Positions 49,958 to 63,882 of a stretch of DNA of 64,000 bases are shown here, one piece after another. How positions within the stretch are numbered: the stretch's first letter is position 1; each line of letters opens with the position of its first letter. This stretch comes from Cyanidioschyzon merolae. Its lineage: Eukaryota. The translations under genes and the position numbers were made by a program. The notes beneath the pieces were generated by a model, which ran no database searches, had not been told where the DNA came from, and was given only the letters and a program-made list of their open reading frames with translations. The stretch lies in NCBI GenBank assembly GCA_000091205.1, contig AP006494.2; one strand, 5' to 3'.

Positions 49958-51679
49958 GAACGGGTGCCATTGCGGTTTGCAGCTGCCTCGCGCACGTCCT
50001 CGAGGCCTCCTGTGGTGGCGGAACCGCTCCAGTTCATTGTCAGCGTTGTTTCAGCGGGGGCCCCATGTACGAGTCTTTGTGCTGTATATGCTGTGCATCG
50101 ACCAGAGTGATGTCAGTGCGCAGCAGTTTCAGGGGACGGCGAGGAGGTTTTGCAGTGGTAGGGCGGCGGCGGCGGCGGCGGCGGCGGCTGTCGACCTGCG
50201 CCACAGGCGTCGTGTTTTTCCCGTCATCGACAGGGGATTTATGGCGACCAGGGACCTTCGATAGCGCGCTTGATGTCAGCGACTGGGAAAGCGTCTACGC
50301 TTCCATGCCCGAGGCCTGCAATTTCCGTGACCCATCGTTGTCCATGCAGATGCTGGACAGTTCGCATGTGCCAGCGGGCGTCGAGCCTAGCCCGGGCGTT
50401 TGCAATTGCGCATCAAGTGCCTGTGTGCCGATGCAGTTCATAGACAGAACAACTTTGCGATACCACTGAGGGCGTCGGCTCGCACGGCACTGTTCATCTG
50501 ACTCGTCGTCAGTTTATGCTCCGACAGTCTCTGTGCGTACCGAGACTTGCCGGCGCGGCACGACGCGTTGGAGAAGCGCACAGTGGTTCGCGAATCCTGG
50601 ACACTGGGTCTGTCCTCCGCTATGATGTATGGAAGACGTCGCCTGTTCATGACGCGGGTCGCTGTTCGGCACCTATCCCTGAGGCGCAGCACGAACTACT
50701 GGGCCCGCGTGCTCATCCGCTCCACGAGATGCACCATGGGCATCTGCTTTGCAGTGTCGTTCGTGCCAGATGTATCTTAGCGCGCCCTGGGTGCAGCCAA
50801 ATGCTCCAGGAAGCCTGATACAGCTTCACGCATGCAAATAGCAAGAATGCGTATGGTTTCCGGCCCCGTGTATGCCTAAACTCGATCGCTTGATTCATCG
50901 CGCGTTGCAGTTTCTCCGCACCGATCACACAACGCCCGATGATGGTGACGTGCTCGTATCCCATCGGTTCCAAGAGGCTTCGGGTTCCGTCTCTGGATGT
51001 TGCGTTGGTTCCTTCAAACGCCCGACAAACCGTTGCTCGACACGATACGGCACCACGCTCGTAACGCTGCGCACCACCGAGACGTCACACTTGAAGCGAC
51101 ACCGCACGCGGCGGCTGTTCGACAGGGACACGCTGGCGAGCGAAAGCCGGTATCAGTGCGAGATGCCGCACTGGACGGTCGTTGTTCCTGACGACGCACC
51201 ACAGCGGATAGGAAGCAACGTCCACACGAGCGCCCTGCGCGGTGGTACACCCCTAAAGCGATGCTTGCTCAGAATGAAGATCCAGGTGGAGCACCACCGA
51301 CGCTATCCTGTCAGTGTTGCTTGCTGCAATGCCGAGGCAGACGCGTGTACGCTGCGTTCCCCGCAGCGTTCGCGGTATACGGCCCAGGTTTAGATCCGAA
51401 TTCGCGAATTCCCTCTACCACAAGGACGAAGTGATTGTATCCGAGCGTTCACTGAACACCAAGCACCAGTGTAGATGCACCAGTCACCGCATTGTTGGTC
51501 GCGATCAGCGGGATGCATCCGATGCGCCCAAATGGAGCGGATCATGTGTGCATCCAGGAATGCCGCCGACCCGCACTTGTTAGTCACCTGGAGCAGTACA
51601 TTGTGTTTTTACCAGTTTGGGTATTCTCGGTGCAGGCCAGTGTTGATGCCGGTAAGCGTTCGCGATTTTTTGCAAAGCA

Positions 51680-53506
51680 TCAAACCATGACACGAATCTC
51701 GATATCATCGTACGGTGCGGCCTGCTGAACAACGATGCGCTGTTGTGTGGCGAGCACGAGGAGTTCCAGCATAGAGCGGGCAATCACGCGGCGAGATGCA
51801 GCTTCAGCATGCCAGAGTTTCTGGATGCTGAGGGCTTCATTTTGTGGTTGCTCGCGACATTTGGCCACCAAATAGTCCAGCAATCGCTCGGTACGATGCG
51901 TCACTATCGACGGTGAAGCTGCGGCAGAAGAATGAGCACCCGGTGTCGACCAGCTGGACAGCAGCTTCGCGGGCGAGGCCATGGCTCGCTCCAGGCGCAG
52001 CGGGCCAACCTCGGCCGCGTCGCCCGGCACGGGAGATGCACCTGCTGACAAAGCCGATAGTCGCGAGATCTCCGTAGTCGGTAGTCCAAACGAAAAGTTA
52101 CTGTCGTCGAGCGTTCCCAGGACAGGGCTTGCGGCTGCTGGCTCCAACGCCGAGGAACGCTGCTCCTCATGTGCATGTGCGAGGGTCGCTGTATCGTTAC
52201 CATCCCTAGGTTCCGCGGTTGCAGCTTGCGATAGATCGGTCCAATATTTCTGGATATGGCTGTGAACCTGTGCACCCTGGCTGGGTACGATTCGTTGCAG
52301 CAGGTCTGTGAGTTTGGAAATGCCATCCAGCTCTGTAGCGGAATCGTCGATGATCGGACGACGGAGGGTATCGGTTGTATCGGCGAGCGCTCGCCGAATC
52401 ACAGCAGTCGCAAGTTCCAGCTGCGAATCCACATGATACTGGGGAGCCAGCGGCCGGCGGCCTGTCGACTTGCGCCGCTTCTGCCGATGCAGCGTGCTCG
52501 TGTTCATGATGCTACCCGTTTCGTCCAAAAACTTCGAGGAGGGCTCTGCGGAATCACGACGTAGCGAAGACGTCGGCACTGCAGTCTCCGCCGCCAAGCT
52601 CCAGTCAAGGGCTGCTGCCGCGTACGTTGCGCCTTCCGGTTGGACGGTCGGAAGTGACAGGTCAAGCGGCGGCGGCTCGGGCAGCGTTAACGGTACCGAG
52701 CGGAATTGTTCCGGTGTCAAGGCTTGATCCTCCGTGGAGGATTTGGGGTATCCTCCGATACCGGCTGCGGGTGGCGAACCCGCGACAGGCGTCGGCGCGC
52801 GCAAGTGTTCGGCCTCTTCATCGCGTCGGACAACTTCTACAGGCCGAGCGCTTGACTGGAACGATTCGTTTCCGAATAGCGGATCGATGGTGATCTGTTG
52901 CGCATCAACGTGAAACGGCGACGGGTTGAGGTCAGCTCCCGCCTCGCTCGCAAACGGCTGTCCAGCAAATGCATCGTTTGCGAGCGTCCCTGCCGAAGCC
53001 GGATAACCGAAACCAAGCAAGCCGTTCCAGTAGTCGCCCAGTAACAGGAGTGCTGAAGCGCTATGCTGTTCACCGGCATCAGCGGAAGCAACCGTGCGAG
53101 TCGCCTCAGCGGCACCGACCACGTGCTCTGAGAAAGTGATGCTTCCGTACGCTGCCGTGGCCGAAGCGCTCGTCAGCGCGGCGCCTACGCCCTGTGAACC
53201 CGACACAGTGCCACCGGCAACGCGGCCGTCTGTCATCTGATAGGTCAGCTGAAGCTTCGTCAACGCATCCGATGCCTCCTCGAGCACGTACCCCGTCTGC
53301 TTCTGGTGGATACGGCTCACACCGAGAAGCAAACATGCACTGAGCCGCAACGCCATAGGGATTTCTGGGGCCGCTATCTGCTGACACGCGTTCACAATGT
53401 CCGTCGTGAAGACCTGAGCCTTTGTGAGTTTGCTTTGAAACGTTGCCGCAAGCCATATTTTCGCGAGGGGCCCTTTACGAGTCAGCACTTGTTGCGCGTA
53501 GAACAT
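51680..53506 (-). CDS. RAD21: Cohesin kleisin subunit Rad21/Scc1 (or Rec8) homologue
   Basis: N-terminus MFYAQQVLTRKGPLAKIWLAATFQSKLTKAQVFTTDIVNACQQIAAPEIPMALRLSACLLLGVSRIH matches the Rad21/Rec8 N-domain. The C-terminus ...SRRVIARSMLELLVLATQQRIVVQQAAPYDDIEI matches the Rad21 C-terminal winged helix. Confidence 0.85.
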   Translation of the reverse strand: MFYAQQVLTRKGPLAKIWLAATFQSKLTKAQVFTTDIVNACQQIAAPEIPMALRLSACLLLGVSRIHQKQTGYVLEEASDALTKLQLTYQMTDGRVAGGTVSGSQGVGAALTSASATAAYGSITFSEHVVGAAEATRTVASADAGEQHSASALLLLGDYWNGLLGFGYPASAGTLANDAFAGQPFASEAGADLNPSPFHVDAQQITIDPLFGNESFQSSARPVEVVRRDEEAEHLRAPTPVAGSPPAAGIGGYPKSSTEDQALTPEQFRSVPLTLPEPPPLDLSLPTVQPEGATYAAAALDWSLAAETAVPTSSLRRDSAEPSSKFLDETGSIMNTSTLHRQKRRKSTGRRPLAPQYHVDSQLELATAVIRRALADTTDTLRRPIIDDSATELDGISKLTDLLQRIVPSQGAQVHSHIQKYWTDLSQAATAEPRDGNDTATLAHAHEEQRSSALEPAAASPVLGTLDDSNFSFGLPTTEISRLSALSAGASPVPGDAAEVGPLRLERAMASPAKLLSSWSTPGAHSSAAASPSIVTHRTERLLDYLVAKCREQPQNEALSIQKLWHAEAASRRVIARSMLELLVLATQQRIVVQQAAPYDDIEIRVMV

Positions 53507-53703
53507 CGCGATTACACCTCCGGTGAACGGACCACTTCAGCCAATTACGACAACTGGTTCGGCGTTGCCAGAGCCCGGGGTGCGCCTCGCGGGAGCAGCC
53601 TAGCGAAGAGACGTCCTGTGCAGTAAGCGTCTCGTTGGGTAAAGCGCGTTGGGTGATTTGGCTTTTCGCCAGCGCAGGGCGCTGCCACGCAACACGTTTT
53701 GGC

Positions 53704-53803
53704 GCGCTCGATCGCCCGATGGCTTCGTGACGCATCGCGCGTTTCGCTTCGCGTGACGCGCTCGATCGCCCTATGGTTTCGTGACGCATCGCGCGTGACG
53801 CGA
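53704..53803. repeat. Imperfect tandem duplication (units of 54 bp and 46 bp) in the Rad21/FANCM divergent intergenic region
   Basis: The units are gcgctcgatcgccc[g/t]atgg[c/t]ttcgtgacgcatcgcgcg(tttcgcttcgcg)tgacgc..., seen as duplicated peptides in shadow ORF 53475..53789. Confidence 0.7.
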
Positions 53804-55647
53804 TCTAGCGGCGCTGGTGGCGTTTGCCCTGGCATTCGGCCGATCGCTGTGCTCTGCTGTGCTGGGTGTTCGTTGCCATTATAGCTGTCAGAGGCGTTCG
53901 CTTCACTGGATGCTGGGCGAATGCATCGACGTGGTCGAGTGTTGATCAATGTTTCGAATTCACATGCCAAAGCGGAATCGTCATCGGGTCGTTGGTGGTC
54001 TGCAAAGAATCGGGCAGTCCGCCGTATCGCATCGGGGGATCCTGACTACGACGAACAGACGCGTTCGCGGTACGCTGGTGTCTTGACGCTCCTCGTGAGA
54101 AGCCTAGGGCGGTTCAGTGCATCTATCTAGGTTACATGAGCAGAAAGACTCCCGGAAAAAGTGACAATTGATTAGCGAATGTAGCAGCGGAGACCGGTGC
54201 CCCTGCCCGTGATCATCAGGTCTGTACGGCAGTGTTGGCAGGGAATCTCGACGTATTGGATACACAAAGATGGAAACACCGGTCTCACAGGATCCTTCGT
54301 TCCCGTTGCAGGTATTTGGTATCCTTTGCGGCGTACGGGCTAAACGAAGAAACAAGTGCGCTTTCCATGCCGCTGTGAGCGCCTCGTTGGATGCCACGTC
54401 GCCGTACCTACACGCCGTGGTACGCCCGCAGCCGCCATGCGCCTCGATCATGCACCGCAATGCAGTGCTGCGCCGAGGCGCTCGCCTCGAGTGCCTCGAA
54501 CGCATCCATGCCATCATGAATGCGACGGATCCTACGCGCATCCAGTCCGGTTGCTTCTGGGGTTTGGCATGGAGCATCCGACCAGTCGTATCTGAAACGC
54601 AACCCTCAACGATATCCAGGGGATCGGTCTCATCTCGACTGCGACTCTACGAGAGACTCGGTGCATCTTGGTTCTAGACGGTCTCCAAACGATGCATCCA
54701 AGCGAACCGCTGGGACCTGCAAACGTCGGCGGTATCCAGGATGCCATGCCGTACACTGAGCCAATGATCAGCGATAGGTGCCTACTGCATCCGCCTCCCG
54801 GTTGCAGCAGCGAGGCAGGCCTCCAGCGACTCCGCCTCTGCCCAGAAGCGGAAGCGAAAGGCGCCCTGACAGCGATTGCGTTTTGGCGCCTCGATCGATT
54901 GCATGATGGTGCTTCACAGTACATTTATGGAACATTAGGTATTAAAATGGTCATAAATATACAAGCGTCTTGCGCATCGAACTCCAAAGCAGGTGTTTGG
55001 CGACGCACCCAGGTGGCTCCAGCGTTGCTTGTGCATAGCGGCTCAGCGGGAACGCTTGCACGGAAAGCCCTCTAATAAACCAGTCTTTTCGCATACTTTG
55101 GTGGAAAGCTTCGGTCGTCCTGAATATCAAGTGCGAGACTGGCTGCCAAAAGAGTCTAGAACTTGGACGAACAGGTTTTTCGCTGAACTGCAGTTCGCCC
55201 TGTACGTGCCGGTGGGAGCGCGCGGGCCTCCCCTGTGCCTGCACGACTGCGGAGGCGCACCTGCCGCTGGTATTGCGGCACTGACTTGGAACTGCGTCCG
55301 TGCGGAGTGCACGTACACTCGGCGGAAGTGAGAAGTGTTCGTGTTATTGCCGGTGCTGGTGCTATTGCTGCAACGCGCTCGCACAGTGTGGTGACAAGCG
55401 GCACAGCGTCGACGAGCGCTGCCGCTCCTCAACGAGAACACGCCACGCAGAAAACGCTCACCGCGGATCGCTATCTACGTGAGCGCGTGTTCCTGAAGCT
55501 TATCCGCGCGCCGGGTTCACGCGCTCGCTGACAAATCGGCAACCAGGTTTTGTCCTGGAAGCAGTAGGTCCCACGCGAGCGTGCTGTCGCTACCGCGCTT
55601 AGCACAAACCTTTCCAAGACGGGGTTTACGCGACTTGGGCCCGAACA

Positions 55648-58600
55648 GTGCTTTTGCCTGCATTTCATTGTAACACGAAGCACATGCTAGATACGGGACC
55701 CCCAGCGCCACCTCAATCCATTTTACATAACTTTTCGGCCTCAGGATACACCGCTGCCGATGATTGCCCCGATGAGCTCTTGCTAGCTGCTCTCGAAAAG
55801 AGCGGTAACCAAGCGTCCACCGCGGTGGGCGTCCCGCAAGCACCGTTCAACAATGAGCGTATCAACGAGACAGCGCTCGAGTTTCCGCTTTGCGCACGGG
55901 ACGAGCGTCCCGCAGCCGTCCCGCAAGCACCGTTCAACAATGAGCGTATCAACGAGACAGCGCTCGAGTTTCCGCTTTGCGCACGGGACGAGCGTCCCGC
56001 AGCCGTCCCGCAAGCACCGTTCAACAATGAGCGTATCAACGAGACAGCGCTCGAGTTTCCGCTTTGCGCACGGGACGAGCGTCCCGCAGCCGTCCCGCAA
56101 GCACCGTTCAACAATGAGCGTATCAACGAGACAGCGCTCGAGTTTCCGCTTTGCGCACGAGACGAGCGTCCCGCAGCCGTCACGCTCGACGAGGAGGCTG
56201 CAAATTCATGGACCTTTCCGGGTGCGTTGCACATTCGGGAGTACCAGTTCAACATTGTCCGCCGAGCGCTCACGCGCAATACCCTGGTCTGCCTCCCAAC
56301 AGGATTGGGTAAGACCCTGATCGCGGCCGTCGTGATGCTGAACTACATGCGCTGGTACCCTGACGGCATCGTCGTTTTTGTAGCGCCAACAAGACCACTC
56401 GTTCACCAGCAAATGAAGGCATGCTATCAGAGCGCAGGTATTGCACCCCAGCTCACAGCTGAGTTGACGGGCCATACGCGTTTGGCTGCCCGTCGAGCGC
56501 TCTGGCATTCCCGCCGGGTCTTCTTCTCAACCCCGCAGGTGATGTTGAACGATGTCCTGCGACACATCTGTCCCGTCCAGCGCATTGTCTGCGTCGTCTT
56601 TGATGAAGCGCACCGGGCAACTGGTCGATACGCTTACTGTGGACTGGTCTCCGAAATAGAACGGAGCACGGGGGGCTGTTTCCGCGTGCTTGCCCTGACG
56701 GCAACGCCAGGAAGCAGCGCGAACGCCATCCAGCAGGTTATCCACAACCTCCGAATAGCACATCTCGAGTTTCGGCAGGAAAGCGACCCGGACGTACTCC
56801 CGTACACGTACGAGCGCCAGGTGCGGGTAGAGCGAGTTCCTCTGGACGCGGCAATCGCTCAAGTCCTCGGTGCTTTTCAGCGGAGCCTTGCGAGCACGCT
56901 ACAGAAGCTCTGTGCACACGGTGCTTTTTATCAGCGCAACCCGGAAAAAGTGCAACACTACCAGCTAGTCATTGCACAGCGGCGTTGGATTGAGGCTTCT
57001 CGACGACAACAGACATCGAACGTCAATGCCAGCAGAACACTTCCCGTGGCGCTCTTTCGTGACTTTGCGCACGCGCTCCTACTCAGTCGATCAGTTGAGC
57101 TTTTGCGCTCTCAGGGACTAGGAACATGTGTTCGGTACCTCGAGCAGGAACGCACCGCTCAAGCAAAAGGCAACCCGCGTTCTCCGAATGAGCTCACCCG
57201 TCGAAGTGAGCTCCAGGAGCTCCACCTCCGAGTCAAACAGCTTCTCGAGCACGGTACGCGCCATCCGAAGATTGAACGATGCAAGGAGCTCGTTGTCCAG
57301 CACTTTCTGCGGCACGGCTCGTCGGCGTCAACACGAGTAATGATTTTCGTCCAGTACCGCGATGTCGTAGCAGAGCTGGAGGCAGCACTTTCCCAAGCGG
57401 CACCGACGGTTCGACCCGCCTCCTTCATCGGCCAAGCAAACAGTGGTATGACACAAGCCGACCAACATCGTATCATGCGCTTATTTCGACAGGGTGCGCT
57501 GAATTGCCTGGTGAGCACCAGTATCGGTGAAGAGGGCCTCGATATCGGGCACGTTGACCTCATCATCAGTTTCGACGCACTCGGATCGCCGATTCGCATG
57601 CTGCAACGGATGGGCAGGACTGCCAGGGCTCGTGCAGGCCAAGTCATTGTCCTTGTTTCGGAGTCGGCGGAATCACAGCGTTTCGAGGAGATGAATCGTC
57701 GAGCGAATGGTATCGCCGAAACGCTCCGCGATAAGTATAGCAAGTTTAAGTTTTTCAAGGAGTCACCGCTCATGCTGCCGGCTGAAGGCCAGCCGATTCG
57801 ATGCCAGGTGCTGCCGCTCACAGCGATGCCCGCGCTAGAGTCGCAGTCCCAGGAGCCTGAACGTCCCCGAGGGGAAGCGGGTTCGACGCAAGCCCCGCCG
57901 CTGTCGCCACGACTCGAGCGTTTGCTGGTGCTCTGCGTCAACTCAAATCGATCTATGGACTGGATGAAACGCCGTCCGTTGCTGGCGCTGAGCGCATCGC
58001 GGGATACATCGACTGAGGCGGCTCAGATTGTCCTCAACGAAAGCAGGTCCATCGAAGCGCAGTATCGGGTACGCTGCACTTCAACCACGTCGATGCTCTG
58101 GATCCGACTTCACCGACTTGTGCAGCACTTCCTTACCGGAATGCAGGCATCAGAGGTACCAATTTGCTTTGAACGGAGGCAGGGCATCGTCGGGCCTGGC
58201 CGCTGCTGTACGGATTGGAGACGCTCCCGCGAGCTCGCGCTCGACGTCCAGCCTGTTCCCTGCAGGGCGTCCGCGGAGCGCGCTCGGGCTCTGCTGGAGA
58301 CAGGGCCTGCTGAGGCCGCTCGGGCGCCTTTGAGCGATTTCCAGCTCACCTCGGATGCGTCGCAAACGGGTCCCCCGCATTCGGAGAGTGCTCATGGAGA
58401 ACCGATCATACCAATGTGTTCAACGAGCGTCCGGATCGACGCGACTGCAAGCGCTCCAGCCGCTGGTACAGGTGCTGTCGCCTCAGCCAGCGCAGTCTAT
58501 TCGTGTTCAGAAAGCGCTCGGTGCGATGCACATTCGGACCCCACATTGGATACAGCGCGTTATGCATCATCGCCCTGGAATGCACTTTTTCCTGAACCAT

Positions 58601-60996
58601 TGTCGACTCCAGCAGATGCCTCTGATCGCGTCGGTGCCCCGCGTGGCTCTCTGGACGCGGCCAGCAACACATCGAGCACCTCTTCGGTGGTGGAGATACC
58701 CACACCCCCGGAGCTGGTGTCGCGAGCACAGCAGGAGTGTCCAGCAGCGATTCCATCTTCAGATTCAAGGTCATCATCATCATCATCATCTGCGTCGTAT
58801 TCACTGTGTATTGCGGGGAGCTGTTCGCCGCACGGCACTCGGGGCGGTCACGAGTCGGTGCGGTCTACGCGAAGCAGCACACCTGCTTGCCGTATTGATG
58901 AATTTATCTCAAATACGGGTTTGTGGCATTCGTCGTCGGTTGCTGTTCAATCATTACAACGCGAAGCGAATGCAACGTTTCGGCCGACTGAGCATCCGGA
59001 TATTCCGAGTGATCACGGTGCATTCAGTGAAGCGCTGCAAGGTGCTGCACACAATGCTAACACTGGCAGCGTGGCGTGTCATGTGTCAGCTGCGCGGGAA
59101 TGCGCTACTCCAGACGTGCCAGAGGAGGTCGCTTCTTCAGATATCTATTGGGATGAGGTACTCTACCGCACTGCCGCTCTCGCGGAAGAGACCATTCATG
59201 GCCAGTCATGTAGATGTCGAGCGTCACCGCAGCAACTGAACGCGCACTCGCCAAAAACGGCACATTTAGGCTCACCTGCTCATGCGAGCGTCCAGCATCG
59301 TGGAGGCGGCACCCAGTCGGCAAGTCCCCAGACGTACGCCCAGCATTGCCCCGGTTACCCCGGTGAGGCGGTGACTCCAGGGGCGCCACCGTCCTTCCTG
59401 GACGACAACGGTAGCCTGAACTCGGTCGGAGCACCAGCTCGGATACCTACCAAGCGACAACGCGCTCACCTACGGCGAGCACAGGCGAGCGATACGGGAA
59501 CACCGGTGCAGTCGCCGAGCGGCGGCAGCCAGTGTGTCTGTACCCGTTCGAGTGCACGCTCGCACCGCGTTGCTGCGTTAGAGCACTCTCCGGCTATTTT
59601 GACGCCATTCTTGCACCACCGCGCCGCAAGAAGGCCACGGCTGGTCCGAATCAGCGACGCTGCCAGTCAGGTTGCACAGGGCACTGCTCTGAGCGACGCG
59701 CTGCCTAGCGGTAGCGCCAGTCGCTGTCTTGAGGTTGCGGAGGCGTCGCCACGAATATCCGCGAGGCTCGGCTCGGTTGCGCAGCGTCCACGCGCGGCTG
59801 GTACCCGAAGCGCACCCAACAAAAGGATCCGACGCAAGCGTCGGCGTGAACTCGTAGCCGCTTTCATCGACGATCAAGCGGAGGTCTCCAGTTCCGAAGG
59901 CAATGCCTCCGTTGATCCAGACGTTGCCGAAGCGCTTCGCGGCACCGACGGCGACTCCACTAGTCCTGATACCGATACGCCGGGCTCCCTGCGAGCATTC
60001 CTCACGAGCCAGGCGACGAGCCAGTCCACCGGTGAACAACGTCGACAGCGGGCGATGTACTGGCGCTCGTTGCGCTCGCCACAGCTCCACTCACCATTAT
60101 CAGCACAAGTGGAGCACAGTTTGACGACAACGACAACGGATCATCGTGCCTCTATCGTCCAGAGTGGAGCCTCTTCAGAAACCACATCACGACACGGTAT
60201 GCTGGCCGGTCTGAATGAGCCCAGCGAAGGCACTGCAACGGAGCCGGTTGCATCGTCTCCAGACACACCGTGTTATCGCTGTGGGCGGAGTCAGGACCCG
60301 GAGCGTACGCTCCTGTGTGACCGCTGCGACATCGAGTGCCATACGTATTGCTGTGATCCACCGTATGCATCTGTTCCCAGTGGATCCTGGTACTGTCCCC
60401 GGTGTGAGGCGTATCAGCGGAATGTACGCATCCTGGTACATTCGCGCAACCTGAACCATCCCCTACTGACCGCAGTTCGGGAGCAACTCGCGCGCTCGTA
60501 TCCATTGTCGGGTCTGGTACCGTGTGCGGGCCTCGAAGCAGACTATGTCGTGTCGCCGCGAGTTGCAGTGTTCTTTCTCGGACCCGAAAGTGGTCGCACA
60601 CCGAATAGAGAACAGTGGTTCGAGCGACTCGAACGAGCAGCTTCCCGTTACACGCGCATCTTCGTGTGTTGGGTATGGACGAGTCCAATTCAGTTGAGTC
60701 CACGAGGTCTCCCGGCCGTGCTCAACACAAATGCAACGCTCCTTCGCTGCAGCGGAATCGCTCAGGCAGCGGAACGCATCACTGACCTTGCGCTTCTCGA
60801 GCACAGAAGCGGTTACGGACTCGCCTGGGTTCCTTTGTCGTGGCCGGATCGCTTTCAAATGGCCTTAGGATTTCTTCAAAAAGCCGCCGATATGTCCTTC
60901 CTACATGCTATGCTGCTTCTGCTTCGCCACGGCAACGGGATGGACGCTCTACGGGACTGGTATCGCCACGAGGGCGCAGCAATGGCGACAACGTGA
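55648..60996 (+). CDS. FANCM: FANCM/Mph1/Hef-family DEAH helicase with N-terminal 29-aa tandem repeats, a C-terminal PHD finger and a degenerate ERCC4-like domain
   Basis: IREYQFNIVRRALTRNTLVCLPTGLGKTLIAAVVMLNYMRWYPDGIVVFVAPTRPLVHQQ...VFFSTPQVMLNDV...VVFDEAHRATGRYAYC...RVLALTATPGS is nearly collinear with the human FANCM helicase core. Helicase-C: ...SIGEEGLDIGHVDLIISFDALGSPIRMLQRMGRTARA. PHD: CYRCGRS...LCDRCDIECHTYCCDPP...WYCPRC (60271-60408). Downstream ADYVVSPRVAVFFLGPE resembles an ERCC4 motif. Confidence 0.8.
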   Translation: MLLPAFHCNTKHMLDTGPPAPPQSILHNFSASGYTAADDCPDELLLAALEKSGNQASTAVGVPQAPFNNERINETALEFPLCARDERPAAVPQAPFNNERINETALEFPLCARDERPAAVPQAPFNNERINETALEFPLCARDERPAAVPQAPFNNERINETALEFPLCARDERPAAVTLDEEAANSWTFPGALHIREYQFNIVRRALTRNTLVCLPTGLGKTLIAAVVMLNYMRWYPDGIVVFVAPTRPLVHQQMKACYQSAGIAPQLTAELTGHTRLAARRALWHSRRVFFSTPQVMLNDVLRHICPVQRIVCVVFDEAHRATGRYAYCGLVSEIERSTGGCFRVLALTATPGSSANAIQQVIHNLRIAHLEFRQESDPDVLPYTYERQVRVERVPLDAAIAQVLGAFQRSLASTLQKLCAHGAFYQRNPEKVQHYQLVIAQRRWIEASRRQQTSNVNASRTLPVALFRDFAHALLLSRSVELLRSQGLGTCVRYLEQERTAQAKGNPRSPNELTRRSELQELHLRVKQLLEHGTRHPKIERCKELVVQHFLRHGSSASTRVMIFVQYRDVVAELEAALSQAAPTVRPASFIGQANSGMTQADQHRIMRLFRQGALNCLVSTSIGEEGLDIGHVDLIISFDALGSPIRMLQRMGRTARARAGQVIVLVSESAESQRFEEMNRRANGIAETLRDKYSKFKFFKESPLMLPAEGQPIRCQVLPLTAMPALESQSQEPERPRGEAGSTQAPPLSPRLERLLVLCVNSNRSMDWMKRRPLLALSASRDTSTEAAQIVLNESRSIEAQYRVRCTSTTSMLWIRLHRLVQHFLTGMQASEVPICFERRQGIVGPGRCCTDWRRSRELALDVQPVPCRASAERARALLETGPAEAARAPLSDFQLTSDASQTGPPHSESAHGEPIIPMCSTSVRIDATASAPAAGTGAVASASAVYSCSESARCDAHSDPTLDTARYASSPWNALFPEPLSTPADASDRVGAPRGSLDAASNTSSTSSVVEIPTPPELVSRAQQECPAAIPSSDSRSSSSSSSASYSLCIAGSCSPHGTRGGHESVRSTRSSTPACRIDEFISNTGLWHSSSVAVQSLQREANATFRPTEHPDIPSDHGAFSEALQGAAHNANTGSVACHVSAARECATPDVPEEVASSDIYWDEVLYRTAALAEETIHGQSCRCRASPQQLNAHSPKTAHLGSPAHASVQHRGGGTQSASPQTYAQHCPGYPGEAVTPGAPPSFLDDNGSLNSVGAPARIPTKRQRAHLRRAQASDTGTPVQSPSGGSQCVCTRSSARSHRVAALEHSPAILTPFLHHRAARRPRLVRISDAASQVAQGTALSDALPSGSASRCLEVAEASPRISARLGSVAQRPRAAGTRSAPNKRIRRKRRRELVAAFIDDQAEVSSSEGNASVDPDVAEALRGTDGDSTSPDTDTPGSLRAFLTSQATSQSTGEQRRQRAMYWRSLRSPQLHSPLSAQVEHSLTTTTTDHRASIVQSGASSETTSRHGMLAGLNEPSEGTATEPVASSPDTPCYRCGRSQDPERTLLCDRCDIECHTYCCDPPYASVPSGSWYCPRCEAYQRNVRILVHSRNLNHPLLTAVREQLARSYPLSGLVPCAGLEADYVVSPRVAVFFLGPESGRTPNREQWFERLERAASRYTRIFVCWVWTSPIQLSPRGLPAVLNTNATLLRCSGIAQAAERITDLALLEHRSGYGLAWVPLSWPDRFQMALGFLQKAADMSFLHAMLLLLRHGNGMDALRDWYRHEGAAMATT
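55831..56178 (+). repeat. Perfect 4x 87-bp in-frame tandem repeat encoding (VPQAPFNNERINETALEFPLCARDERPAA)x4 in the FANCM-like N-terminus
   Basis: Four identical 87-nt units; the last copy has a single g>a change. They generate the repetitive shadow ORFs 55713..56279 (-), 55783..56100 (-) and 55853..56320 (+). Confidence 0.9.
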
Positions 60997-61216
60997 GCCT
61001 TTAGCGCAGCCGCTGCGAATGCTTGGCTGTCGAGTGCCAGCACCGTGGCGAAATCGTCGACACGAACCTGATCTAAAAGCGATAGGAAACGCCGTCTATC
61101 AACAGCATTCTTTCGAAACAGCGCCTCGCTATAGACGACCGGTGATCACGACCTGGCAGGTAAGACCAAGCGCATGAGTGACCCCTGGGGACGCGTGAAT
61201 GCACGTGTTCTTCAGT

Positions 61217-62350
61217 TTAGCGGGCGTTCGCGCGCAAATTCCGAATATGCAAAAGTGAATCTACAGGTGAACGACAGATGGGGCAACGATCGCTACGCAC
61301 GCGCAACAACTGTGCACAGTCTACACAGAGACACAGGTGGCGACACGGCAGCACCGTGGTATCCCGCGGGTCCGTCATGCAAATGATACAGAGATCATCG
61401 TGTTCTGCTTCAGCGGCTGCAGCGTCGGAATCGTCTGCAGAGGCCATGCGCTCCTCGATGCCGTAGATCTCCTGCAACTCGTAAATGGTGCCGTCTACCA
61501 GGATTTTCTGTTGGACGACCTTGACCGGGATCTCGTCAGCGAGCTCGAGTCCTTTCGGTGGCATGCACAGCGTCACGTATGTGGCCTGGAAACGCACGAG
61601 GCTGCCTCCATTGGGGTCTGTGTCCGTCGAGCGCCCCGCAGACTGTTGTACCTGCCTGTGGCCGCTCTTGGCGAGATCTTCGGCGCTCTCAAGGCGCTGC
61701 AGCAGAATCACAATCGGGTATCGATGCTTGGCGAGTTTGGCCGGGTTCTGTTCGAAAAGAAACGACTCGCGATATCGACTGGGCACGAAACCGCGGTGGC
61801 TATTCTGGCGGTACCGCTGGCCCATACCGGCCTCGAATGGGGTAGGTACTGGGGGCACCGGCTCCAGCGGCTCGACATGGAACTGCTCAACGCGCGTTGT
61901 GCGGTTCGTGAGGTCCTTCGCCATGAAGAAGACTGTGCAGAGGCCCGAGCACGTTGCGTCAAAAACAAACTCCAACAAAAACTGCTGTGGATTTTCGGGA
62001 TCTCTAACAAGGCGTACACTCTTCTTCCGAACATTCAAGTCGTTCTTTATGGTGTACGCGTGAACCATGGTCGGAACCGGCTGTGTGGAACGCTCCGCAC
62101 CACCCTGCAGCCAGCGGAGTCCGGAACTCGAGCCCTGATTCACATCGCCGCCAGGTCGTTGCCAGGAAACCGTGCCGGTCGGAGGCAACCCGTCAACGGC
62201 ACCGGGCTGGGGCACGAGGTTGCCGGGGCTCGTTTCCACAGCTGGTACCGGACGAGGCCCCAGCACCCGTGCCTCCGGTGCATCGTTTCCCGGTCCGTCT
62301 CCGAATCGCTGTGCAACGTGTACATCAGCCTGCGAGTTCACGTTTCCCAT
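61217..62350 (-). CDS. MGRN1: MGRN1 (mahogunin)-like RING E3 ubiquitin ligase with N-myristoylation motif
   Basis: N-terminus MGNVNSQ, a Gly2 myristoylation consensus. LVRDPENPQQFLLEFVFDATCSGLCTVFF and KILVDGTIYELQEIYGIEE match the conserved MGRN1 DAR2 region. C-terminal RING: CIICMTDPRDTTVLPCRHLCLCVDCAQLLRVRSDRCPICRSPV. Confidence 0.9.
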   Translation of the reverse strand: MGNVNSQADVHVAQRFGDGPGNDAPEARVLGPRPVPAVETSPGNLVPQPGAVDGLPPTGTVSWQRPGGDVNQGSSSGLRWLQGGAERSTQPVPTMVHAYTIKNDLNVRKKSVRLVRDPENPQQFLLEFVFDATCSGLCTVFFMAKDLTNRTTRVEQFHVEPLEPVPPVPTPFEAGMGQRYRQNSHRGFVPSRYRESFLFEQNPAKLAKHRYPIVILLQRLESAEDLAKSGHRQVQQSAGRSTDTDPNGGSLVRFQATYVTLCMPPKGLELADEIPVKVVQQKILVDGTIYELQEIYGIEERMASADDSDAAAAEAEHDDLCIICMTDPRDTTVLPCRHLCLCVDCAQLLRVRSDRCPICRSPVDSLLHIRNLRANAR

Positions 62351-62425
62351 GAAATGAGCAACGAGTCGGGTGTGCTTCGAGGGCCCGTCTGTACACGGCT
62401 TTTATAGCGAACGCGCTGCGTAACT

Positions 62426-62637
62426 GCTAGGTCGCTAGGTCGCTAGGTTGCTAGGTCGCTAGGTCGCTAGGTCGCTAGGTCGCTAGGTCGCTAGGTCGCT
62501 AGGTCGCTAGATCGCTTGGTCGTTAGGTCGCTAGGTCGCTAGGTCGCTAGGTCGCTAGGTCGCTAGGTCGCTAGGTCGCTAGGTCGCTAGGTCGCTAGGT
62601 CGCTAGGTCGCTAGGTCGCTAGGTCGCTAGGTCGCTA
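62426..62637. repeat. (GGTCGCTA)n minisatellite, about 26 units, with a few variant units
   Basis: gctaggtcgctaggtcgctagg... read directly from the sequence. It lies 76 bp upstream of the MGRN1-like ATG (minus-strand gene). Confidence 0.95.
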
Positions 62638-63882
62638 CCGTTTCTCCGACCTGAGACGTTACCAGAGGCCTGCGGCACGGGCCCGGCGCAGGCAGGCCCT
62701 TGCGCTGCGATGATCGAGCGCGCTGCGCACTGGATACCTCATGAGCAGCTAGCGTTCACGGTTGCATGGAGCGCGGGCTGCTTGGTATCGTGTCCGGTTT
62801 TGCCAAAGGCAAGACGGGTTTGAATCTCGAGGAATGTGGTCGTGCTTTTCGAGTGAGGTATGGTGGTCTGTTTTCTGAAAGTTTAGAGCACGTACGCTTT
62901 CAGTGGAGTCTAGATCGATGCACCTAACGCACCAGGTAGAAGGAAGGCCTGCTTGCGTTGCTTCTCGTGAGGATCGGAAGCGCTTTGCGCACGTGTTTCA
63001 GCACTTGCAGGTATGCATGGGGAACGGTTCGTGGGAACGCGAAACTATTGAAGCCGCGAAAGACTGTGCACACTTTAGTTGTAGCGGTCGATGGTCAGGT
63101 GCGGAAACCTTGGGGTGCGTAGAAGGCGAGCGTTGCGCTCGCCGTTCTGCAGCGCAGAGGCTCGATCAGAAACGATCCGGTATCATAGTTGGGCACGTGC
63201 TTGCAGGGACATTGCTTACCCAGACACGCTTTTCTAAAAATACGGTCTTGTCGTTACGTTTCCTGGTTCGAGCGGGCGCGTCACCAGGTGAGGTCCACAA
63301 AGCACCTCGCTAGCGCGCGCGTTGCGGACGAATCCCAGAGAAATCACAGCGGCAGTCCAGGACTTGTACGACGAATGCAGTATAAGGGCATCATTACGTG
63401 CGGGTTGGAAGCAGTTTACGGAGGGATTTGTTGACTTTCGTCGGATCGGCGTTTGTGCCGGCCTTTGTGCCTCCCAATGAATCTTGCATATGGATTCGCT
63501 CTGGGTAGCGGCGAGGCGCCATTTTGCGCGTCAGCAGCTCTCTCTGTTGCGCTGATGTCGAGTCCGGTCTGGTGACTTTATTTGCTGGCGCATCAGGCAT
63601 GGCGCTCGAGGCATCAGCGCATCGTTACGGGCATTGGCATCCACGCGTACGCTTCCCAGCGCTTGGGTGACAGATTCGATCGCGTGCGCTTCCACTAGTC
63701 AAGCACGTAAACGGTTCCCGCCTTCAAGCGATGAGACGACGGCATACAAAGCAGAGCCTGGAACGCCTACAACGCAGATCGCGGTGCTGCTTCGGATGCC
63801 GACGCTCGCTGCAGCGCGCACGATGGATCGTCGAACGCAGCCGACGTTGCCGCCGGTGAAGTAGAACTGGATGCGTGTGTGG

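Follow-up and report, generated by a model that had tools for sequence, protein, structure and literature searches.

The 64-kb window analysed here (64,000 nucleotides, one strand, of contig AP006494.2 from the red alga Cyanidioschyzon merolae) contains, near the N-terminus of a long open reading frame (ORF) for a FANCM/Mph1-family translocase, four head-to-tail copies of an 87-bp coding unit that are almost perfectly identical. Such an array raises the question of what it is: a recent expansion that varies in copy number, an artefact of assembly, or a device presenting a short linear motif several times over, all of which were put forward in the initial annotation of this DNA. The answer that we favour, and that we hold with good confidence, is that the array is a young in-frame coding minisatellite in a predicted disordered N-terminal extension, and that its length variation is most likely tolerated and near-neutral.

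Tandem Repeats Finder resolves positions 55830-56185 as a single array (period 87, 4.1 copies, 99% matches, no indels, score 698), well ahead of any other repeat within the window, and a separate repeat search returned unit spacings of 87, 87, 87, and 87 in the same register. As assembled, the core of the array occupies 55830-56177 on the plus strand, 348 bp in total, and consists of unit 1 (55830-55916), unit 2 (55917-56003), unit 3 (56004-56090), and unit 4 (56091-56177). When the units are printed in register, the first three are identical and carry CGG at unit positions 68-70 (type 'g'), while the fourth (type 'a') differs by a single G>A at 56160, unit position 70. This sole difference falls on the third base of codon R159 and is synonymous (CGG>CGA). 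The early description of four 87-bp units with one g>a in the last copy is therefore borne out, and the interval 55831-56178 given for them is the same array taken in codon phase (V50-A165). The 261 bp of repeated identity is beyond chance.

At 29 codons per unit, the array keeps the frame of the 1770-residue ORF and lies close to its N-terminus, as had been proposed; the single-copy ALEFPL motif of orthologous proteins confirms this frame. The unit peptide, VPQAPFNNERINETALEFPLCARDERPAA, contains one cysteine and five acidic residues, a composition already remarked upon from the sequence. ORFs in other frames also lie over the array (55853-56320 on the plus strand; 55713-56279 and 55783-56100 on the minus strand); these were rejected as by-products of the periodicity, and none runs on into a conserved domain. 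A PIP-box or APIM reading of the unit was likewise discarded by inspection, as QAPFNNER does not match QxxLxxFF.

The orthologues in Cyanidiococcus yangmingshanensis, P0003, Cyanidium caldarium, and Galdieria each carry one copy at the same position, in which the motif reads ALEFPL, or LWFPS in the case of Galdieria. Of the 119 other homologues listed, approximately 110 were read at the N-terminus, and each of these shows the N-terminal element once (no systematic count was made). The comparison shows one copy to be the ancestral state, and the expansion is therefore specific to the C. merolae lineage. On the same comparison, the array is young, in the sense of recent relative to the divergence of the genera. 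The identity of the units contributes less to this conclusion than it might seem. With a strain divergence of ~0.7%, two 87-bp units as old as the split between strains would be expected to show ~0.6 differences, and because the strains differ by so little, perfect unit identity lends only weak support to extreme youth; a stronger case is made by the sister genera, with their single copy, and by the allelic variation described below. Of the original suggestion that unit identity marks a very recent expansion, the recency is thus supported, while the identity itself adds little to it.

Sequences closely related to the 10D reference vary in the length of the array. The 90%-identity protein cluster of the host protein has 37 members, mostly from Joint Genome Institute (JGI) and ENA metagenomes, and the lengths of these proteins fall in 29-residue steps: 1770, 1741, 1711/1714, and 1682-1685 residues, equivalent to four, three, two, and one units. 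When JGI metagenome contigs were scanned for exact occurrences of the 29-nt 5' junction of the array, two loci only were returned, and the population sample was therefore drawn from members of the protein cluster. DNA was obtained for eleven contigs (L001-L011), each a member of the cluster or a carrier of the exact junction; for L001, the one contig for which a 12-kb DNA comparison was made, identity to the window is 99.3-99.4%. The metagenomes concerned are JGI 3300050747, 3300050748, 3300050379, 3300052695, 3300053647, 3300053660, 3300057138, and 3300027863, and ENA ERZ27249350.

When units are coded by the codon that ends at unit position 70 ('g' for CGG, 'a' for CGA), the four-unit allele of 10D reads [g g g a]. 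A three-unit allele, [g g'' a], is present in three different JGI samples (L004, L008, and L010); its middle unit combines CGT>CTT (R>L) with a synonymous TGC>TGT, and all three of its units can be told apart. Two units are arranged as [g g'] in L001, where the last unit has TGT and lacks the 'a' mark, as [g a'] in L007, where the last unit has GAC>TAC (D>Y), and as plain [g a] in L002 and L003. The remaining contigs (L005, L006, L009, and L011) have a single unit, [a]. All four one-copy contigs have type 'a' as their sole unit, and of the seven contigs with two or three copies, six end in it, in L007 with the extra change. The reading frame is intact in every allele from one to four copies, and two of the four kinds of within-unit substitution are nonsynonymous (R>L in an internal unit, and D>Y). 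Near-identical relatives thus carry arrays that differ both in length and in unit variants. The comparison of unit number called for at the outset shows that four units are not fixed: relatives have three, two, or one, some with private substitutions, and the sister genera have one, all of which supports the initial proposal of a recent expansion polymorphic in copy number.

The sequence around the array is itself variable. Across the 5 kb downstream, the window and the seven contigs that span this distance differ at 49 variable sites, and no two of these eight sequences have the same haplotype. Single-nucleotide polymorphisms (SNPs) in the flanks form a mosaic, with blocks reshuffled among contigs (L001 and L004-L009 compared with window positions 50410-62727), and the K39 and T39 variants are each found with one and with three units; this mosaicism fits populations that recombine in nature as well as chimeric consensus contigs assembled from mixed strains. 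Further along the host ORF, a serine run encoded by (TCA)6TCT at 58771-58791 (residues 1030-1036) comprises seven serines in 10D and six or seven in related contigs, and this trinucleotide polymorphism accounts for the odd one-residue differences in protein length.

A candidate origin for the first duplication lies at the edges of the unit. The word CGTCACGC, at 56178-56185 on the plus strand, matches the start of the unit, CGTCCCGC, at seven of eight positions, and constitutes the extra 0.1 copy reported by Tandem Repeats Finder. In the single-copy form, the distance between the two words is exactly 87 bp (29 codons). Replication slippage or unequal sister-chromatid exchange between CGTCCCGC and CGTCACGC would thus yield precisely the in-frame 87-bp duplication, and from this arrangement we infer that the pair may have seeded it; with two identical units present, further gain or loss would follow by out-of-register pairing. 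The perfect 10-bp pair GCGTCCCGCA is the better match, but its members are spaced at 76 bp; selection would eliminate a duplication between them, since it would shift the frame. DNA secondary structure was considered as a driver of slippage and rejected: two units fold at -37.1 kcal/mol, with z = -2.2 against shuffled sequences, a signal too weak to build on. Separately, CGTCCCG is present twice, and its complement CGGGACG once, in each 'g' unit (unit positions 1-7, 68-74, and 77-83). The G>A at 56160 falls within CGGGACG (unit positions 68-74), and the 'a' unit loses this 7-nt inverted repeat.

The unit holds only part of a conserved element. The back part of unit 4, together with the unique 3' flank, encodes a 26-residue element, FPLCARDERPAAVTLDEEAANSWTFP (residues 154-179; 56143-56220, plus strand), which adjoins the helicase core on its N-terminal side. 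This element consists of FPLCARDERPAA followed by VTLDEEAANSWTFP, and the unit boundary lies inside it, after ...RPAA. Units 1-3 hold the front half only; unit 4 and the 3' flank alone rebuild the whole, and it is with unit 4 that the single copy of the homologues aligns. The pattern [FWY]P-x12-[LIVMF][DNE]-x6-W-x-[YF]P is found in 52 of the 120 listed homologues, namely 6 from Cyanidiophyceae and 46 of fungal Mph1 type (those named being ascomycetes or labelled MPH1), and its spacing is identical in all six of the former and in the 46 Mph1-type matches. Homologues with the element include P0002-P0006. The ascomycete form reads WPLANREEPPTHHKLDREALxTWVYP; the vertebrate form is shorter, FPG[FL]D-x6-W. 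No description of the element was found in the literature, and the solved human FANCM translocase spans residues 82-647, starting downstream of the equivalent segment (PMC12263834). These data draw attention to an apparently uncharacterised element, aromatic-Pro...LD...W-x-[YF]-P, that is shared by red-algal FANCM and ascomycete Mph1.

The AlphaFold2 model distinguishes the extra copies from the last one. Its predicted local distance difference test (pLDDT) score is below 50 over residues 40-140 (~30 in units 1-3), rises to 73 at residues 151-160, and reaches 90 at residues 161-170; units 1-3 are predicted to be disordered, and the last unit, at the helicase core, is predicted to be ordered. 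Upstream of the array, the acidic motif DDCPDELLLAALE (residues 26-38; 55759-55797, plus strand) matches the acidic DDDxLLVAxYEAE motif of animal FANCM N-termini, and a helix is predicted with low confidence at residues 30-40. Each extra unit would add 29 disordered linker residues between this acidic DDxxLLxAxxE motif and the helicase core, for a total of 29-87 added residues between DDCPDELLLAALE and the translocase core, and would bring with it a truncated front-half copy, ALEFPLCARDERPAA, of the conserved element. The last unit alone, continuous with VTLDEEAANSWTFP, would rebuild the functional element. As the extra copies lack this back half, they are most likely tolerated length variation rather than a selected multivalent device.

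Several points weigh against this reading of a young, near-neutral minisatellite. We infer near-neutrality from the variability. Alignment depth accounts for part of the contrast in pLDDT between unit 4 and units 1-3, with average coverage of ~1-13 rows per 10-residue block over units 1-3 and of 24-32 rows at residues 151-170. The plain [a] and [g a] contigs, moreover, are exactly the products that short-read collapse would be expected to make from [g...g a]; by reasoning, the minimal de Bruijn path is [a] at k below 87 and [g a] at k of 87-174. As the plain one- and two-copy contigs match such products, part of the apparent range could be artefact. Finally, L009 (one copy) and L008 (three copies) are almost identical in flanking haplotype and come from closely numbered samples and projects, a pairing that fits either polymorphism within a population or collapse.

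Taken to its full extent, collapse would mean that all natural C. merolae share the same long array and that every contig with one to three copies is a short-read product, with no true polymorphism among them. We consider this improbable, even though it accommodates both the minimal de Bruijn paths through [g g g a] and the near-identity of the L008 and L009 flanks despite their three and one units. It does not accommodate the three-copy allele, whose mutually distinguishable units were assembled identically in three samples; the joining in L001 of a g' unit straight to the 3' flank, a junction not present in 10D; or the private D>Y in the last unit of L007. L006, whose k141_ name refers to a 141-mer assembly graph, has one unit, and this is likely genuine because a 141-mer over the 5' flank, the unit, and the 3' flank should need real single-copy reads. 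At a minimum, the four units of 10D and the marker-bearing arrays of three and two units are structurally different alleles; collapse of the 10D array could not have produced the latter. It is therefore certain that arrays of different structure exist, and a copy-number range of one to four is probable.

A different alternative accepts the polymorphism and assigns it a purpose: repeated ALEFPL-type motifs, under selection, would recruit several copies of a partner, or serve as internal decoys for the docking element next to the helicase core, and copy number would tune FANCM activity. ALEFPL is indeed conserved in four Cyanidiophyceae genera, with its aromatic-Pro core kept at the same spacing in the ascomycete Mph1-type matches; the extra copies lie in predicted disorder, where such motifs act, and every allele keeps the reading frame. 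We nevertheless judge a selected device of this kind to be unlikely. The extra copies are without the back half of the conserved element, and half of the kinds of substitution within units (R>L and D>Y) alter the protein. Copy number, for its part, ranges from one to four among sequences that are ~99.3% identical and is one in all sister genera, with no sign of constraint or of maintenance by selection. No partner of the repeated motif was found in the literature. The FxxE/FPL short-motif idea of the initial annotation is thus sustained insofar as ALEFPL is conserved, but the motif proves to be the front half of a longer, helicase-proximal element that the extra copies do not complete, and its multivalent presentation is speculation.

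A more specific version, to which we give only a slim chance, is that the ALEFPLCARDERPAA copies compete with the native element for a docking surface on RecA1 or for a partner, such that copy number tunes the branch-migration or anti-crossover activity of FANCM. If this decoy reading were true, C. merolae lineages would differ in recombination or repair capacity by way of a fast-mutating 'dial' in a genome-stability gene.

Least probable of all, and in our view very unlikely indeed, is that the 10D reference is itself mis-assembled and that its true array has another unit number or a single unit: near-perfect tandem units are a classic site of assembly errors, and the sequence look-up has on record no independent second assembly with the exact 1770-aa product, but the array is only 348 bp long, the 2007 reference was reportedly obtained by Sanger sequencing with reads that would span it, seven independent metagenome assemblies show more than one unit between the same array boundaries, with three units that can be told apart in three of these assemblies, and short-read errors collapse such repeats and do not inflate them. 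The reference is not free of error, as resequencing of 10D descendants revealed 288 SNPs and 81 indels common to both relative to the published sequence (PMC7291098). It was, however, updated after 2004, and the title of the 2007 paper, as cited in that source, describes a 100%-complete sequence (PMC7291098). Given this update and the recurrence of multi-unit arrays in independent assemblies, the assembly artefact envisaged in the initial annotation is unlikely, and a young coding minisatellite with tolerated length variation remains the reading that we prefer.

The gene that hosts the minisatellite is an intronless ORF of 1770 codons plus stop, extending from ATG to TGA at 55684-60996 on the plus strand in the ORF list. 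Its product is an exact match in the sequence look-up to BAM80883.1 / XP_005536919.1 of C. merolae 10D, annotated as "similar to ATP-dependent RNA helicase" and encoded on a contig of 859,119 bp. A trypanosomatid origin, which the long intronless ORF and a GC content of ~57% had suggested, was rejected on the strength of this match and of the homologue search. The nearest in-frame stop on the 5' side is at 55600, and there is no second in-frame ATG between the start at 55684 and helicase motif I. Pfam identifies DEAD (residues 187-346, E = 1.2e-20), Helicase_C (537-649, E = 2.3e-19), and PHD (1530-1574) domains. The first two form a superfamily 2 (SF2) translocase core at 56242-57630 on the plus strand (DEAD/ResIII 56242-56721; Helicase_C 57292-57630), which adjoins the array on its 3' side. 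No known domain is present in the N-terminal 185 residues, where Pfam at E values up to 10 returned sub-threshold noise (FN3_7, YfhD, and DUF2085).

The host is a FANCM/Mph1-family translocase, and the FANCM-like identity first given to it is upheld by both sequence and fold. A phmmer search of PDB placed human FANCM first (9el5, E = 6.6e-121, in two stretches over query residues 173-700) and archaeal Hef second (1wp9, E = 3.3e-70); Foldseek aligned the AlphaFold2 model of residues 1-720 to 9el5 with a template modelling (TM) score of 0.92, a root-mean-square deviation of 2.9 Å, and 40% identity. The resemblance of the SF2 core to FANCM includes the inserted Hel2i-type helical domain. The catalytic motifs GLGKT, DEAH, and QRMGRTxR are invariant in the homologue alignment. 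Toward the C-terminus, an acidic block, FxDDxAExS...LxxFL...MYxxSLRSP, matches residues 1502-1578 of mammalian FANCM (BLASTP, E = 2e-5), and the ERCC4-like tail gives a weak collinear match only, to mammalian FANCM residues 1794-1989 (BLASTP, E = 0.11). ERCC4 is absent from the Pfam matches even at E values up to 10, and the host protein has no Pfam match to the FANCM-MHF domain.

The PHD finger lies in the C-terminal part of the host protein (60271-60405). In precomputed Pfam lists, it is also present in P0003 and P0004 from Cyanidiophyceae, in P0017 and P0086 from oomycetes, and in P0074; it is found in none of the animal or fungal matches listed. It may represent a lineage-specific chromatin-reading addition.

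Other repeats are present in the window. Downstream of the adjacent RING-finger gene and ~6 kb away from the 87-bp array, an 8-bp microsatellite, (GCTAGGTC)n, extends over 62426-62637 (26.5 copies, 96% identity); its run length differs in every related contig that reaches this interval (L001, L004, L005, L006, and L008), which makes it a second hypervariable marker. At 1305-1916 on the plus strand, a 203-aa ORF with a signal-peptide-like N-terminus, rich in Tyr, Lys, and Gln, contains approximately seven tandem 18-bp repeats (6 aa, PIYTKQ) at 1497-1666 that are more diverged, with 74-85% matches. Short degenerate tandem repeats of 28-bp units, with ~3 copies and 60-73% matches, occur at 29760-29846 and 53703-53792.

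The repeat in the FANCM gene belongs to a familiar kind of element and, taken by itself, amounts to an ordinary young coding variable number tandem repeat (VNTR) in a public, annotated protein. Our literature search found no paper that links Cyanidioschyzon with FANCM beyond passing mention, or with an 87-bp repeat. Its use is partly practical: the 87-bp steps can be resolved on a gel and, combined with unit sequence, offer a marker for typing C. merolae lineages and for checking the identity of laboratory strains. The alleles also indicate that 0-87 extra residues are tolerated in the linker that joins the acidic motif to the translocase core, which is useful for the design of N-terminal tags and truncations in a genetically tractable alga. 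If copy number does affect function, they would constitute a natural allelic series in a gene that, in other eukaryotes, keeps crossovers in check, a topical matter given the report of a sexual cycle in Cyanidiophyceae in the title of PMC13353863.

Compared with known members of the FANCM/Mph1/Fml1/Hef family, the C. merolae protein shares the SF2 core of DEAD and Helicase_C domains and has human FANCM as its closest match in both sequence and fold; it differs in having a PHD finger and in lacking Pfam matches to ERCC4 or FANCM-MHF. Human FANCM offers a second comparison in its short motifs, among them MM1 and an N-terminal PIP-box reportedly described by Rohleder and colleagues in 2016. These are short conserved peptides in disorder with potential for docking, and ALEFPL is one such peptide. 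In human FANCM, the MM1 region binds FANCF (PMC12263834). The C. merolae unit, however, has no sequence similarity to MM1, MM2, or the PIP-box (QxxLxxFF), and in the ancestral state ALEFPL is contiguous with the helicase core, where its last copy is predicted to be ordered.

The closest parallel is with intragenic minisatellites and VNTRs, of which yeast cell-wall genes such as FLO1, with their in-frame tandem repeats, offer an example, as reported by Verstrepen et al. (Nat Genet, 2005). Set against FLO1-type repeats, the C. merolae array is modest, with one to four copies only; there is no evidence in C. merolae that copy number alters phenotype; the host is a nuclear DNA-repair translocase rather than a surface protein; and the unit is the truncated half of a conserved element rather than a self-contained module. 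In its structure and behaviour, the array nonetheless resembles this class throughout: its head-to-tail direct units are tens of base pairs long, within the 10-100 bp range, and their length is a multiple of three, such that units can come and go with the ORF intact; the units are nearly identical to one another; copy number varies among close strains, and sister taxa have a single copy; and units are presumably gained and lost by slippage or unequal recombination, as in other coding minisatellites.

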